Shown piece by piece: positions 2,279-60,435 of a stretch of DNA of 64,000 bases (position 1 is its first letter; each line of letters opens with the position of its first letter). This DNA is from an uncultured Bacteroidaceae bacterium (GTDB lineage Bacteria > Bacteroidota > Bacteroidia > Bacteroidales > Bacteroidaceae): positions 13-64,012 of the forward strand of contig CAYYEL010000004.1 in NCBI GenBank assembly GCA_964470845.1. Reading direction: 5' to 3'. The position numbers and the translations under genes are program-made. Under the pieces are notes generated by a model. That model was not told the DNA's origin, ran no database searches, and saw only the letters and a program-made list of their open reading frames with translations.

Positions 2279-2800
2279 ATGATATACAACGAACGAGAAA
2301 CGCGCCACAATCAAGTAATTGAGGCGGCCAAACAGATGATGACAGCAGCCCGCACTGCCCCAAAGGCCAAAGGCTGCGACATAATAGAAATATCAATGAT
2401 AATAGAGGACGACATATACGCCCTGTCCAATGCCCTGCAACAGATTGGCGAGGAGCGTCAACGTCCGGGAATGATACGCGATGCACAGAACATACTCTCG
2501 GCCGAGGCAATTATTATTATAGGTTCGCGCGAGCAAGCAATGGGGCTCAACTGCGCCTATTGCGGCTGCCCCACCTGCGATGTACGCCCCGAGGGTGTCC
2601 CCTGTTCAATGAACACAATAGACGTGGGAATAGCCATCGGCTCGGCCTGCGCAACAGCAGCCGACCTGCGCGTCGATACACGTGTAATGTACTCGGCCGG
2701 ATACGCAGCCCACAAGCTCGGTTGGATGCCCGATTGTAATTACATAATAGCAATACCTGTGAGCGCAGGTTCAAAAAACCCCTTCTTCGACCGAAAATAA
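2279..2800 (+). CDS. DUF2148-like ferredoxin-domain protein
   Basis: 173 aa with the Cys cluster NCAYCGCPTC. The N-terminus resembles DUF2148 family proteins (recalled from memory). There is a 1-nt gap to aguA. Confidence 0.55.
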   Translation: MIYNERETRHNQVIEAAKQMMTAARTAPKAKGCDIIEISMIIEDDIYALSNALQQIGEERQRPGMIRDAQNILSAEAIIIIGSREQAMGLNCAYCGCPTCDVRPEGVPCSMNTIDVGIAIGSACATAADLRVDTRVMYSAGYAAHKLGWMPDCNYIIAIPVSAGSKNPFFDRK

Positions 2801-2801
2801 A

Positions 2802-3842
2802 ATGGAACAGAGACGAGAATTATATCTGCCGGCCGAATGGCACAAACAGCAAATGGTGCAACTCACGTGGCCGCACGAAAATACCGATTGGGCCTATATG
2901 CTCGACGAAGCAATAAAATGTTTCGTCGATATTGCCGTTGCCATCAGCCGTCGCCAAAAGCTGCTCATAGTAACCCCCGAGCCCGACACCGTTCGCAAGC
3001 AACTGCAAATGACAGCCGCCAACATACAAAACATACGTTTTTTTCAGTGCGAGAGCAACGACACGTGGGCACGCGACCACGCCTTTATAACAATCTTGGG
3101 CGACAGCGTCCCACACTATCTCGATTTTGAGTTTAACGGTTGGGGGCGTAAATTCGCTGCCGACAAAGACAATGCCATAAACAGTAAAATGTACGACGCA
3201 GGTGTTGTAAAAGGCGAGTACGAGGATTGTCTGAGCCTTGTGCTTGAGGGAGGCTCAATAGAGAGCGATGGCAAAGGCACACTGCTCACAACCACCCACT
3301 GTCTTATGGCATCTCACCGCAACCAGCCCCTCACACGCGAACAGATAGAGAAACGCCTCGTGCAGATGCTGCACGTCAAGCGAGTATTGTGGCTCGACCA
3401 CGGCAATCTCATAGGCGACGACACCGACGGACACATCGACACAATTGCCCGCTTCGCTCCCAACGACACAATAATACACGTTCGCTGCAACGACCCCGAG
3501 GACGAACAATTTGCCGACCTTCAGGCAATGGAAGCACAATTAGCGACTTTCCGTACCGAAGAGGGCACCCCCTACCGTCTGTTGGCCCTCCCCTCGCCCG
3601 ATGCCATATACGACGAGAACAACGAGCGACTGCCGGCCACATACGCCAACTTCCTCATAATGAACAATGCAGTACTGTACCCCACATACGCACAGCCACA
3701 GAACGACCAACGAGCAGCCGAGGTTCTTGCAAAAGCCTTCCCCTCGCACGAGATAATAGGCATCGACTGCCGCGCACTTATCAAGCAGCACGGCTCGTTA
3801 CACTGCGTAACAATGCAATACCCCATAGTGCAAAAACCTTAG
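2802..3842 (+). CDS. aguA: Agmatine deiminase
   Basis: 346 aa. The LPAEWH N-terminal motif, TWARD, and a C-terminal catalytic Cys in GSLHCVTMQ are typical of Porphyromonas-type peptidyl-arginine/agmatine deiminases. Confidence 0.9.
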   Translation: MEQRRELYLPAEWHKQQMVQLTWPHENTDWAYMLDEAIKCFVDIAVAISRRQKLLIVTPEPDTVRKQLQMTAANIQNIRFFQCESNDTWARDHAFITILGDSVPHYLDFEFNGWGRKFAADKDNAINSKMYDAGVVKGEYEDCLSLVLEGGSIESDGKGTLLTTTHCLMASHRNQPLTREQIEKRLVQMLHVKRVLWLDHGNLIGDDTDGHIDTIARFAPNDTIIHVRCNDPEDEQFADLQAMEAQLATFRTEEGTPYRLLALPSPDAIYDENNERLPATYANFLIMNNAVLYPTYAQPQNDQRAAEVLAKAFPSHEIIGIDCRALIKQHGSLHCVTMQYPIVQKP

Positions 3843-57307: not shown

Positions 57308-57315
57308 TAATTATT
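57308..57315. repeat. Target-site duplication TAATTATT (left)
   Basis: Identical octamer at 60428-60435, directly outside the transposon inverted repeats. Confidence 0.8.
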
Positions 57316-57341
57316 GGGGGTTATACGTTTCCAAACCTAAA
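57316..57341 (+). repeat. Left terminal inverted repeat GGGGGTTATACGTTTCCAAACCTAAA
   Basis: Matches the reverse complement of 60402-60427 at 24/26 positions. Confidence 0.85.
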
Positions 57342-57383
57342 TAATCTTGCGGGATAAATCAGTTGATTGTCTCGCAAGATTAT
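57341..57383 (+). other. Subterminal hairpin between IRL and the transposase start
   Basis: ataatcttgcggg / ctcgcaagattat (12/13) with a 17-nt loop. Confidence 0.5.
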
Positions 57384-57442
57384 TATTTTGCCAAGCAATT
57401 ATTCTCACCAAAGTTATTAACACCAAATAATCGTTTGGTGTT

Positions 57443-58360
57443 ATGTTTGATTTTATCAATTTGACTCTACAAGAGTTTATCCGTAAATTCAATTGTGAGG
57501 ATGTTTGCTTGAGTTATCTTGAGAAGAGATTTTGGAACAATATCCCAGTATCTCCTTTTGACCCATCCTCAAAAGTATATAACTATGGCAATCATAAGTA
57601 CCGATGTCGAAACACGGGCAAAAACTTTAATGTCAAGACAAATACTTTGTTCCACGGAACGAAAGTACCACTTGACAAATGGTTTTATGCTATCTGGAAG
57701 ATTGCTAATAGCACTAATGGAATATCCTCAGTACAGCTGAGCAAGGAAATAGGTATTAGACAGGCTACAGCTTGGTCTATGCTTCATCGTATTCGTATGT
57801 GTATGAGTACTGAGAATGTCGCTAAAATGAGTGGCGAAGTTGAACTTGACGAAACGTATGTTGGCGGAAAGGAAAAGAGCAAGCATTCAAACAAGAGAAT
57901 TCCACATAATCAAGGCAGAAGTACAAAGACAAGAACGGCTGTATTAGGTATGCTTGAAAGAAACGGCAAAGTCGTATGCCGTGTAATCAAAGGTAGAGTT
58001 ACCAAAAAGAAACTTACCGTACCAATTCTTACTACAATCAAACGCACCGCCACTCTATATACAGACGAATATAGTGGCTATAATCTCGTTGGCAAAGTTT
58101 ATAAGCGTGAGAAAGTAAACCATAGCAAGAAACTATATGTTAAAGGCAAAGCACATACGAATGGTATCGAAGGCTTTTGGTCAACAGTCAAAAGAAGTTT
58201 TGTCGGTGTTTACTACAAGATGAGCCGTAAGTATTTGCATTTGTATATGAACGAATATGTATTCCGTCACAATGTAGCAAAAGAGAATGGATTGAATAGA
58301 TTTAACCATTTCCTTACTCTTGCCAATAGATACGTTCCACTCAAAGAATTAGTTGCATAA
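57443..58360 (+). CDS. IS1595-family (ISXO2-like) transposase
   Basis: 305 aa with an N-terminal zinc-ribbon-like region, VELDETYVGGKEK, YTDEYSGY and HTNGIEGFWSTVKR (the DDE-type ISXO2-like domain pattern). Confidence 0.85.
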   Translation: MFDFINLTLQEFIRKFNCEDVCLSYLEKRFWNNIPVSPFDPSSKVYNYGNHKYRCRNTGKNFNVKTNTLFHGTKVPLDKWFYAIWKIANSTNGISSVQLSKEIGIRQATAWSMLHRIRMCMSTENVAKMSGEVELDETYVGGKEKSKHSNKRIPHNQGRSTKTRTAVLGMLERNGKVVCRVIKGRVTKKKLTVPILTTIKRTATLYTDEYSGYNLVGKVYKREKVNHSKKLYVKGKAHTNGIEGFWSTVKRSFVGVYYKMSRKYLHLYMNEYVFRHNVAKENGLNRFNHFLTLANRYVPLKELVA

Positions 58361-58512
58361 TGAAGACAAACAGAAACAAAAAGTACATTGTACTCACGCC
58401 AGAAGAGGTAGCACAATTTAGAGCATTAGGATGGGAAGGGATTATGAACAAAGCAAAATCCTATAATCCTAATGCAAAGAAAAACATCAAGAAGAATGGC
58501 AGGAAGAAATAA
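58360..58512 (+). CDS. Small basic ORF (50 aa) overlapping the transposase stop (ATAATG)
   Basis: MKTNRNKKYIVLTPEEVAQFRALGWEGIMNKAKSYNPNAKKNIKKNGRKK. It is below the track cutoff and I recognise no homology. Confidence 0.3.
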   Translation: MKTNRNKKYIVLTPEEVAQFRALGWEGIMNKAKSYNPNAKKNIKKNGRKK

Positions 58513-58758
58513 TTCTATTCCAATTGGATATCAGCCTGTTCCTTTTCTGTATATACCATACCCTCTACTTCAAAGTTATAAAGAGCAGTTATAATAGAAT
58601 TGAGAAAGGAAAGATGCTCAGCATCTGACTTAATAAGACATTCGCTATATTCCATAAACAAATTGTTTTAAGAAGGTTTGACAATGATGAACAATTTGAT
58701 TTACAGTCGCACTCGTAATGCACTGCAAATATACAACAATTTTATGGAATATACGAAG

Positions 58759-58795
58759 AATGGGAGCCATCTGTGAAGACTGCTCCCATTTTTTG
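58759..58795. terminator. Terminator hairpin inside the transposon between converging units
   Basis: aatgggagc / gctcccatt stem followed by ttttt. Confidence 0.6.
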
Positions 58796-58811
58796 TTTAT
58801 TAGTTCTTATT

Positions 58812-58988
58812 CTATTTCTTGCGTTCTATCTCTTTTTTACGCAACCAAGCAATAAATGGAGTAAAGAGTAAAACAAAAGCAAGATAGTACCATATTGGTA
58901 AATTTATCCCTTGCGTATCTGCTACAATAAATATTCCAATTGTGCTTATTAATGACCACAAAAAGCCATAGCCTAAATATTTCCCCAT
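58812..58988 (-). CDS. Small membrane protein (58 aa, 2 predicted TM), hypothetical
   Basis: MGKYLGYGFLWSLISTIGIFIVADTQGINLPIWYYLAFVLLFTPFIAWLRKKEIERKK. It starts 7 nt after the stop of the 115-aa ORF and is below the track cutoff. Confidence 0.4.
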   Translation of the reverse strand: MGKYLGYGFLWSLISTIGIFIVADTQGINLPIWYYLAFVLLFTPFIAWLRKKEIERKK

Positions 58989-58994
58989 AACATA

Positions 58995-59342
58995 TTATCT
59001 CATTATAGAGTTATATAAATCCCAAAACATTTGGTCTTTTGCTCTTTCGTAACCATACCAAATTTGAAGTGCAAATACTACCAATCCAATGATTAGTACA
59101 ATCCAGCCTAACACATCGGTTTCGGTAATTGTTTCATCCTCGTGGTAAGGCAATGTAATAGTTTCCGTATTTAAGTGCTTTGAAACTGCAAGAATAATAA
59201 TACCCACTAACCCAGTTAGCCAACAATTGATAAACCACAGCCAACCTCTTCGATTGCGTTTCTTTGCCATACTATAACCAGCTATGGCGAGAAAAATTGG
59301 AAGAATGAGTCCAATTAAAACTCCAATGTCATTTACATTCAT
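58995..59342 (-). CDS. Small membrane protein (115 aa, 3 predicted TM), hypothetical
   Basis: Hydrophobic segments are IGVLIGLILPIFLAIAGY, LWFINCWLTGLVGIIILAV and VLGWIVLIIGLVVFALQIW. I recognise no family. Confidence 0.55.
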   Translation of the reverse strand: MNVNDIGVLIGLILPIFLAIAGYSMAKKRNRRGWLWFINCWLTGLVGIIILAVSKHLNTETITLPYHEDETITETDVLGWIVLIIGLVVFALQIWYGYERAKDQMFWDLYNSIMR

Positions 59343-59604
59343 AATGGCGAATTTTACAAGGCTCTCCGTGGGCAGACAATTGGAGAATTTCTACAATGTT
59401 TATTAGTGAAAAGAACGTGGACTGCCACCTTGCATCCTTGTAGGTATCGCCAAACACCTGAATACACGCACGGTAGGCAGCCCACGTATATGAGCTGCTC
59501 CGTGCCTCGTGTATTCTTTGTTTTTGATTTGGCGAATTTTTACAAGGAATGAGGCACATTCTCTATTATTTCCAAACATTGTCCCGAAAGACGATGCAAA
59601 GGTA
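59343..59604 (-). promoter_or_regulatory. Promoter box plus about 250-nt structured leader of the 115-aa membrane-protein gene
   Basis: A TAccTTTG box lies on the minus strand at 59597-59604. The direct repeats ccttgtaaaa(a)ttcgcc lie at 59531-59547 and 59346-59361, the latter 4 nt from the AUG. A partly complementary ggcgatacctacaagg lies at 59436-59451. A 16-bp interrupted hairpin lies at 59464-59512. Confidence 0.45.
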
Positions 59605-59658
59605 CGGATTTTCTTCGATATTCTGCTTACCTCACTTCGCTTTATGATAAAAATTAGG

Positions 59659-60072
59659 TTATTTACGTTGGGATTCAAACCATTTAGCAAAATACTCTTG
59701 AAACTCTTTAAGGTTATTGAATTTGCTATGGTCAAACCTCAAGCCAGTGATTTGTTCAAACCTTTCAATGGCTATTAAGTCCACAAATGGGAATTTTAGG
59801 TTCAATTCTTTCTCTGTGAATATATGCCCTTTCGTTTTTACTCCGTTACCGATAATGTTCAGAAGATGTTTCAGAAGTGTGATTGTCGCTGAATTACAAG
59901 CAACCTCGCCACTGATACTGCTGTCGCTAACAGAAAGTACTGACATCGGTCTTTCAATTGAGTAGAATGCTTCAGAGAAATGTTGCTTGAAATTTCTGTA
60001 TCCTACAACCCTTATGTTATATGAGCCATCTCCTTGCTCATTCCAATCTATGATTATTCTTGATTCGTCCAT
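59659..60072 (-). CDS. Hypothetical cytoplasmic protein (137 aa)
   Basis: Clean ORF with no TM segment and no recognisable motif, inside the transposon. Confidence 0.5.
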   Translation of the reverse strand: MDESRIIIDWNEQGDGSYNIRVVGYRNFKQHFSEAFYSIERPMSVLSVSDSSISGEVACNSATITLLKHLLNIIGNGVKTKGHIFTEKELNLKFPFVDLIAIERFEQITGLRFDHSKFNNLKEFQEYFAKWFESQRK

Positions 60073-60140
60073 TATGTTAAATTTATGTTAAATATCCAAT
60101 TTGGGAAAAATTTCGTATGCTTACCTGTTATAAGTACGAA

Positions 60141-60297
60141 AAAACAAGAAGGCTATGACAAATCTATGTAACACATCTTGAAGTTCCGAATAGAGTTTAT
60201 GTACAGTTACTTTGACTATTCTTTTGAGCATGGATGGTCAGTAGTGGCTGTATATCGTAAAGTGTTTGAATAGATAAAATCATAGCCTTCTTGTTTT
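60141..60297. repeat. 18-bp perfect inverted repeat separated by 121 nt
   Basis: aaaacaagaaggctatga (60141-60158) and tcatagccttcttgtttt (60280-60297). Confidence 0.8.
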
Positions 60298-60310
60298 AAT
60301 AACTCTGTAA

Positions 60311-60355
60311 AGAAAAGTGGCGTACCCTTTGTTCATTTAGGGTGCGCCACTTTCT
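60311..60355 (-). terminator. Hairpin with a U-tail on the minus strand, directly downstream of a minus-strand TAacTTTG box (60364-60371)
   Basis: agaaagtggcgcaccc / gggtacgccacttttct (one mismatch) followed by ttt on the minus strand. Confidence 0.45.
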
Positions 60356-60401
60356 CTTGTGCTCAAAGTTATTCTAAATGCAACTGAATTTGTAAATTTA
60401 G

Positions 60402-60427
60402 TTTAGGTTTGGAAACGTATAAGTCCC
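60402..60427 (-). repeat. Right terminal inverted repeat
   Basis: The reverse complement is GGGACTTATACGTTTCCAAACCTAAA. Confidence 0.85.
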
Positions 60428-60435
60428 TAATTATT
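60428..60435. repeat. Target-site duplication TAATTATT (right)
   Basis: Identical to 57308-57315. Confidence 0.8.

Follow-up and report, generated by a model that had tools for sequence, protein, structure and literature searches.

The concept of the transporter insertion sequence (tIS) was defined on the IS1595 family (PMC3129680). Within this family, MTnSag1 of Streptococcus agalactiae and tISCpe8 of Clostridium perfringens are mobilizable elements with 25-bp repeats and 8-bp direct repeats (PMC5704250). Here we analyzed 64,000 nt of DNA from an uncultured Bacteroidaceae bacterium (contig CAYYEL010000004.1; this whole stretch is referred to as the window), which harbors an intact IS1595-family element of 3112 bp (~3.1 kb) at positions 57316-60427. 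The element is probably a tIS that combines a fixed accessory operon with a cis-acting leader switch for plugged-in cargo. Passenger-carrying IS1595 subgroups, reportedly ISNwi1+, ISPna2+ and ISNha5, are said to have been described by Siguier, Gagnevin and Chandler in 2009. The end GGnnnTTAT of the window element presumably resembles the ISNwi1 consensus, which we treat as a lead and not as a test.

Like the described tISs, the window element has an IS1595-type DDE transposase, inverted repeats of ~25-30 bp starting with G's, an 8-bp duplication and extra genes between the ends. Unlike them, part of its passenger region (the p137 gene, a leader RNA, orf50 and orf48) is conserved over a lineage in which transposase identity spans 40-100%, and the cargo of this lineage varies in defined slots. 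MTnSag1 and tISCpe8 are likewise small cargo-carrying elements with an IS1595-family transposase. In contrast to the window element, which belongs to Bacteroidales and carries an RNA-led cassette, they are found in Firmicutes and carry lincosamide-resistance genes and oriT; no recognisable resistance gene, relaxase or known oriT signature was recognised in the window element. The transposon itself is another member of the known cargo-carrying IS1595 kind; it is the RNA-led cargo cassette that appears to be new.

The first-pass annotation had described 26-bp inverted repeats matching at 24 of 26 positions, identical flanking octamers taken as an 8-bp target duplication, and a sole IS1595-like transposase filling less than one third of the element. 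Direct reading and a scan of the window bore this out: the octamer TAATTATT abuts both ends, and the transposase gene accounts for 918 of the 3112 bp (Table 1). The end sequence occurs twice in the window when ≤3 mismatches are allowed (0 expected from 100 shuffles) and still just twice with ≤5 mismatches. Because there are these two occurrences only, no second, closer repeat pair bounds the transposase alone. In the window sequence, the chance that two fixed positions have identical 8-mers is 3e-5 to 8e-5.

The transposase matches the Pfam family DDE_Tnp_IS1595 (PF12762, E 1.3e-38) over positions 2-153 of the 153 in the profile and scores 190.4 bits against NCBIfam NF033547 (cutoff 75). It keeps all residues that are invariant in 12 relatives of 44-100% identity. 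The invariant columns include D136 (ELDETYVGG), D208 (LYTDEY), N240/E243 and K250 (HTNGIEGFWSTVKR), which we take from family knowledge to be catalytic or basic residues; the invariant cysteines are C22 and C55 only. The N-terminal zinc-ribbon PF12760, carried by some relatives and partly weakly, was not reported for this transposase at E ≤ 0.01. Its closest protein cluster, at 99% identity, is unnamed and has 539 members, many from gut metagenomes; more distant relatives are named in their sources merely "IS1595 family transposase", and a look-up of the exact sequence returned no record. The DDE domain, the 26-nt inverted repeats (of the roughly 25-30 bp class) and the 8-bp duplication together place the element in the IS1595 family.

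We sought other copies by scanning one genome per species. Transposases 95-98% identical to that of the window were found at six loci, in metagenome-assembled genomes (MAGs) of Muribaculaceae, Phocaeicola, Alloprevotella and Bacteroidaceae. Both ends are present in L001 (3845 bp), L002 (3669 bp) and L004 (4027 bp; L numbers denote loci), from MAGs of Muribaculaceae, Phocaeicola and Alloprevotella, with the 8-bp duplications ATCTCGCA, TAAAAAAG and AAACCTAA, respectively. Through its protein alone, we also found a 2698-bp relative whose transposase is 59% identical. This one element occupies two different sites, with duplication of AAAAGTAA in L151 and of TTTTATTT in L152; the related ends GGGATTTATACGC are present in L149-L153. 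Including the window, six independent insertions with 8-bp duplications were identified, at different sites and in different genera. Different cargo lies between the same ends in copies of 2.7-4.0 kb, each with its own duplication.

Because the other copies have their own 8-bp duplications, the TAATTATT flanks are not a chance AT-rich coincidence, a possibility raised by the first-pass annotation. It had also proposed looking for further copies in which cargo travels with the same ends; L001, L002, L004 and the 2698-bp relative are such copies, and every feasible test among those it suggested supports an element of the IS1595 family that is intact, recently mobile and cargo-carrying. At the level of sequence comparison, the near-identical copies in four genera show horizontal spread, though not its route. 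Several copies sit on IMG/VR viral contigs. The ends, the duplication and the multiple insertions are observed directly, whereas the chemistry is assumed from the family: the transposase would have recognised the 26-nt repeats, and its insertion of the element, which lies between two divergent host genes, would have produced the 8-bp duplication. At L005 (5874-7350) lies an internally deleted copy of 1477 bp, whose transposase is truncated at residue 227 and fused to DNA near the RNA block. The lack of a target duplication around it suggests, at the sequence level, deletion or recombination between copies.

Copy-to-copy comparison by blastn separated a conserved core from variable parts. The left end and transposase (57316-58510) show ~94-95% nucleotide identity, and a non-coding block at 59338-59617 shows 97-98%, above the transposase gene. 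The right repeat is also kept, and the intervening open reading frames (ORFs) differ. The element had been assigned ~2 kb of passenger DNA; its small ORFs, structured non-coding DNA and cargo were confirmed, whereas about half of that length, comprising the p137 gene, the leader RNA, orf50 and orf48, is on this comparison conserved core of the transposon lineage, and two slots only vary. The accessory operon runs opposite to the transposase and consists of the p137 gene, a predicted Bacteroidetes promoter, a leader of ~250 nt and a slot that starts exactly at the first cargo AUG. Slot A encodes two small membrane proteins in the window, and other multi-transmembrane or signal-peptide proteins in other copies.

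The layout is the same in elements that were retrieved solely by their transposases (65% and 59% identity), in which the RNA scores 122-162 bits against the covariance model described below. One strand encodes the transposase and a 54- or 55-aa ORF; the opposite strand has the cargo and the RNA as well as one or two small ORFs without annotation. The RNA is also present at loci whose transposases are 40-50% identical, and a subset of these loci has p137 homologues of 34-52% identity.

Conservation of the non-coding block begins at the -7 box (59604-59597) and stops at position 59342, the ATG of the gene that opens slot A. ORFs that cross the block are thrown out of frame by indels in L003 and L004, and the block is therefore non-coding; a leader peptide was likewise rejected, since neither the 58-aa nor the 76-aa ORF across the RNA keeps its frame in L003 and L004, and phages lack both. 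The minus strand folds into a long rod (-84 kcal/mol; z-score -5.5, compared with -3.7 for the opposite strand). Further RNA loci were collected by pattern scans of IMG/VR and metagenome contigs, and a covariance model built from 15 sequences yielded 94 full-length matches of 86-169 bits, 78 of them distinct; the window contains one. In the 78 distinct copies, 95.5% of the cells of the rod fold, which has six helices (P1-P6), are standard pairs, and compensatory changes occur in 29 of the 45 pairs (422 cells). The covariation score of 0.366 was reached by 0 of 500 shuffles (0.160 shuffled), and control structures whose 3′ partners were slid by 1-3 columns were 31-47% paired only. Covariation of the rod was the same on a MAFFT alignment that had not been fitted to the model. 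Many G.U pairs are conserved, and therefore the RNA strand is fixed.

For most of the 78 distinct copies, the distance from the -7 box down to the core is 33-44 nt. In Rfam 15 (4227 families), nothing overlaps 59340-59600 at E ≤ 1, nor was there a match for the phage, Segatella or other versions of the RNA. In full-text literature, the invariant words of the RNA matched polymerase chain reaction primers for NDM only, and the combination of "IS1595" and "RNA motif" returned nothing relevant. L031 and L097 each have, according to nhmmer, an additional partial RNA-like match on the strand of the full copy, ~170 nt and ~900 nt away from it, respectively; these may be tandem or decayed copies.

The same RNA has a second set of conserved helices. 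The helix GUGCCUY:RAGGCAC pairs in 99.8% of cells with compensatory changes in three pairs, a small hairpin h (AGGY/RCCU, loop GUUUGGCGAU) is 98.7% paired with compensatory changes in three of four pairs, and the helix GUGGGCUGCC:GGCAGYCCAC is paired in 98.6% of cells. GUGCCUY:RAGGCAC excludes P1 and P5, and GUGGGCUGCC:GGCAGYCCAC excludes P6 and P1. Since a U-run follows the latter helix, the two together look like an intrinsic terminator in this model. By constrained folding, the two states lie a few kcal/mol apart in most copies tested. As the aligned copies show, the predicted rod and the predicted two-hairpin fold are both supported by covariation.

We then examined how the RNA is linked to the genes behind it. 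Most of the 78 distinct copies have a same-strand ORF downstream whose start is no more than ~75 nt away from the core. This ORF nearly always encodes a multi-transmembrane or signal-peptide protein; a minority, of the Segatella type, precede a helix-turn-helix (HTH) gene. The stretch that immediately precedes the cargo AUG repeats the 5′ arm of the RNA in transposon copies (CCUUGUAAAAUUCGCCAUUAUG in the window). Over 37 distinct arm/initiation-region combinations, this stretch forms a duplex with the 3′ arm of its own locus at a mean of -10.0 kcal/mol, compared with -5.2 kcal/mol for a different arm, and 0 of 10000 permutations reached the observed value. The stretch is complementary to the 3′ arm of its own locus, and therefore the 3′ arm can pair with either the 5′ arm or the initiation region. 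In the model, this choice between closing the rod and pairing with the initiation region is the logic of a translational switch.

We propose that the leader alternates between two folds. In the first, the 5′ half of the core would pair with its 3′ half in the long rod P1-P6; in the second, the core would form the two hairpins GUGCCUY:RAGGCAC and GUGGGCUGCC:GGCAGYCCAC, the latter beside the U-run and terminator-like. When the 3′ arm closes the rod, the start codon would be free, and when it pairs with the initiation region, the start codon would be masked. The leader would thereby act in cis as a switch that sets both transcription read-through and translation of any cargo placed behind it; its input could be a ligand, a protein, temperature or folding kinetics. 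We infer the function of the promoter and of the terminator as well as the direction of this regulation. Cargo would probably be exchanged by homologous recombination between copies, for which the conserved leader and the transposase-proximal end would provide the flanks.

The leader resembles those of riboswitches and attenuators in being a covariation-supported 5′ leader with invariant internal loops and mutually exclusive helices, one of which lies beside a U-run, and in having a segment that can mask the initiation region in silico. It is unlike riboswitches in that the downstream genes encode heterogeneous membrane or secreted proteins rather than one pathway, with no clear metabolite clue, and in that mobile elements carry the RNA along with a predicted promoter of its own. 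Tentatively, the leader might be a bistable regulatory RNA of a new class, working as a riboswitch or as an attenuator under protein or kinetic control, and would serve gut Bacteroidales phages and the IS1595 lineage as a portable plug-in switch for membrane and secreted proteins, with p137 as a possible partner.

The RNA is not confined to the transposon lineage. A sensitive blastn search with the whole element yielded two further records that matched through the RNA block alone. Bacteroides phage BS-TP1 (PQ571274; L010, locus 3002-3158) carries an 80% identical RNA between gp101 and gp102, on the same strand as these genes. A 317-kb replicon of Segatella hominis (NZ_CP137560; L011, locus 2971-3128) carries a 72% identical RNA upstream of an HTH gene. 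In Bacteroides phages of ~100-140 kb, the RNA is located between the gene for a conserved 78-aa Cys-rich protein and two small multi-transmembrane genes (phage-type loci L010 and, from IMG/VR, L013-L017, L020, L024, L026 and L028). A divergent subgroup (L011, L027, L074, L102, L103 and L115) lies 107-182 nt before a Cro/C1-type HTH gene, and in L011 an RtcB RNA ligase gene is found ~500 bp away on the other strand. A distant, 207-nt homologue (32.5 bits) was detected in L155-L158 (locus 2763-2969, plus strand), 2 kb upstream of an Odoribacter-type IS1595 transposase of 49% identity. It keeps P1-P4, and a 63-nt insertion replaces the apical part; the otherwise invariant UCGCCAA/UUGGCGA of P3 is changed to CGACCAA/UUGGUCG with pairing kept.

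Alternatively, the RNA could be a small RNA that stands alone and acts in trans, such as a decoy, a 6S-like or an anti-defence RNA, with its own promoter and terminator; it would be carried as cargo, and its position before membrane-protein genes would be secondary. In favour, a -7 box of its own lies at a fixed distance, a GC-rich helix is followed by a U-rich 3′ end, and the RNA is rod-shaped, ~160-190 nt long and has invariant internal loops; in phages it lies between unrelated genes without a start-codon mimic, and one copy is near the RtcB gene. However, the nearby same-strand ORF start in most distinct copies, the conservation of transposon copies through to the cargo ATG, and an initiation region that co-varies with the RNA's own arm, which would be needless for a purely trans-acting RNA, all speak for action in cis. 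We consider a stand-alone RNA unlikely as the general explanation; for the phage copies it is plausible.

The conserved block could also act as DNA: the transposase might bind it as an internal site, cassettes might be exchanged at it as a recombination hotspot, or it might be an oriT as in MTnSag1 and tISCpe8. The cargo boundaries coincide with the block edges, the block is a long imperfect palindrome, and known IS1595-family cargo elements are mobilizable (PMC5704250). Against a DNA site, a cruciform or the other strand would have A.C mismatches in place of the conserved G.U pairs, the compensatory changes keep pairing and not sequence, the minus strand folds better (z-scores above), a promoter box lies at a fixed upstream distance, and the same block is present in phages with no IS1595 transposase nearby. 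This explanation is very improbable. Still less credible is an RNA that controls or guides transposition, as an antisense to the convergent transposase mRNA or as a guide of the kind found in IS110 and IS200/605: the leader operon does converge on the transposase gene, and no part of the element is more conserved than the RNA, which persists across a lineage spanning 40-100% transposase identity, but the same RNA occurs in phages and the Segatella replicon without a transposase, a terminator-like hairpin separates the cargo and transposase operons, no complementarity was seen between the RNA and the repeats or target sites, and IS1595-family DDE transposases are not known to use guide RNAs.

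Several points weigh against a tIS with a leader switch. The promoter, the start of transcription and the terminator have only been predicted, from consensus sequences or from energies, and the phage copies could be stand-alone small RNAs. The phage and Segatella copies have no start-codon mimic, and therefore the translational part of the model is limited to the transposon copies. The changes in GUGGGCUGCC:GGCAGYCCAC are almost all one-sided, from C to U, and keep G.U pairing. An extension of this terminator-like helix, AUCCGUG:CAYGGAU, was predicted from energy and was dropped, being 72.8% paired, the same as shuffles. Most RNA copies were retrieved by a pattern that fixes GTTTGGCGAT and GGCAGNCCAC, so these segments cannot vary, and the model-fitted alignment favours the rod structure used to build the model; copies retrieved through the transposase or blastn fit the rod model equally well.

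An empty allele of the insertion site was also missing. The sequence GCATATATAATTATTTAACAATGGAAC is the empty site expected for the window insertion; the 35-mer TAGTGCATATATAATTATTTAACAATGGAACAAAC had 0 matches in metagenome contigs, and the reconstructed 881-nt empty site had no match in the plasmid collection, which likewise counts against the interpretation. Contigs L007-L009 from the same strain break inside the element and were rejected as empty sites. The missing empty-site allele is an absence of data and not a refutation.

Table 1. Features of the IS1595-family element and its borders (window coordinates; strand left empty where none is given).
Feature	Position	Strand	Remarks
Left target-site duplication	57308-57315		8-bp TAATTATT, read directly
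Left inverted repeat (IRL), 26 nt, GGGGGTTATACGTTTCCAAACCTAAA	57316-57341	+	Pairs with IRR, 24/26
Hairpin with 18-nt arms just inside IRL, upstream of transposase gene	57340-57384	+	Conserved in other copies (L006 matches both orientations)
IS1595-family DDE transposase, 305 aa, intact	57443-58360	+	PF12762, NF033547, invariant residues
orf50, basic 50-aa ORF	58360-58512	+	Start overlaps transposase stop (TAATG); in all copies
orf48, small ORF of 46-48 aa	58515-58661	-	Own -7 box at 58733-58726
GC-rich hairpin GGGAGC...GCTCCC followed by T6	58748-58801		Terminator-like, read from sequence
Variable slot A	58812-59342	-	Different genes in other copies
58-aa membrane protein, slot A	58812-58988	-	ORF of this copy
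115-aa multi-transmembrane protein, slot A	58995-59342	-	ORF of this copy
Copy of the RNA's 5′ arm, CCUUGUAAAAUUCGCCAUU, abutting cargo start codon	59343-59363	-	Possible partner for 3′ arm
Core of structured leader RNA, ~160 nt within ~250-nt leader	59409-59566	-	Covariance model 165.6 bits
Predicted promoter -7 box TACCTTTG (59604-59597) and 5′ stem-loop of leader	59567-59604	-	Conservation between copies starts here
p137, gene for 137-aa protein, conserved accessory gene	59659-60072	-	In all copies; unannotated family
Variable slot B	60073-60401		Non-coding in this copy; small ORFs or two-gene unit elsewhere
Candidate p137 promoter, -7 box	60166-60159	-	Within slot B
Right inverted repeat (IRR), 26 nt	60402-60427	-	Reverse complement matches IRL 24/26
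Right target-site duplication	60428-60435		8-bp TAATTATT, read directly

The p137 family comprises 594 clusters in a profile search of 5.8 billion proteins, all of ~134-137 aa, all unannotated and without a Pfam domain. Two types occur among the copies, with a mutual identity of only 42-44%. Two AlphaFold runs gave predicted local distance difference test (pLDDT) values of 55 and 65; the best Foldseek match in PDB had an E of 0.32, and a profile search of PDB sequences returned nothing meaningful. Searches of the cargo and accessory proteins against Pfam, NCBIfam, PHROGs and PADLOC gave sub-threshold membrane-protein noise only. The counterparts of orf50 are the 54/55-aa ORFs in relatives with 59-65% identical transposases. 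orf48 was confirmed only in L001 (96% identical), and look-alike ORFs were recognized by eye at the same position in L018 and L025. The GC-rich hairpin followed by T6 looks like a terminator between the convergent transposase and cargo operons.

Unannotated families recur in slot A behind the RNA: multi-transmembrane proteins with an A-(K/R)-(K/R)-G-R...W-F motif, ~160-aa signal-peptide proteins, 93-99-aa proteins with two transmembrane segments, and 365-aa signal-peptide proteins (for example, window 58995-59342; L040, L052, L119, L121, L064, L044, L029, L058, L117, L145 and L031). Slot B of the window is itself structured. The region 60125-60365 folds at -94.2 kcal/mol on the plus strand (z-score -9.7) and at -68.8 kcal/mol on the minus strand (z-score -6.6); it contains a ~157-nt near-perfect hairpin rich in G.U pairs (60141-60297), followed by a 15-bp GC-rich hairpin (60314-60353), and has only fragments in common with L004 and L045. 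On these predictions, it may be a second RNA gene carried as cargo. Rfam matches to tsr25, MicC and ceN80 elsewhere in the element were far below gathering scores and were taken as chance. In the Alloprevotella copy, slot B (L004, 8737-9767, plus strand) holds an overlapping two-gene unit of 100 aa and 243 aa, with no PADLOC or Pfam match except a weak CARF-related hint (E 0.044); this unit could be small defence-like cargo.

The GC content of the element is 36%, compared with 43.6% for the window. To its right lie a Tsp45I-type restriction enzyme (PF06300, E 7e-101) and an N4/N6 methyltransferase (PF01555), in agreement with the restriction-modification pair noted at first reading. The flanking host genes point away from the element: a TPR protein gene at 57114-55420 on one side and the restriction enzyme gene from 60778 on the other. 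Both terminal repeats contain an outward-facing Bacteroidetes -7 box, TAGGTTTG (57339-57332, minus strand; 60404-60411, plus strand). Through these predicted boxes, insertion of the element could drive or replace the promoters of both flanking host genes.

As a functional analogy only, the RNA-led cassette can be compared with phage "morons" and with the Pc/attI of integrons, in that a promoter and a regulatory unit would be portable and serve interchangeable accessory genes. Like a moron, the same RNA precedes small membrane proteins in Bacteroides phages. Unlike integrons, the element has no integrase or attC-type site, and its cargo would most simply be exchanged by homologous recombination. 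What is novel here is a conserved internal architecture in a widespread transposon lineage, centred on a covariation-supported RNA that is absent from Rfam and common to Bacteroides phages. If the leader is a switch, its signal, the role of p137 and what the small membrane or secreted cargo does for the host or the element would become testable questions, and Bacteroides genetics would gain a compact, portable control element. Small mobile elements would then be able to regulate interchangeable genes without a dedicated regulator for each.

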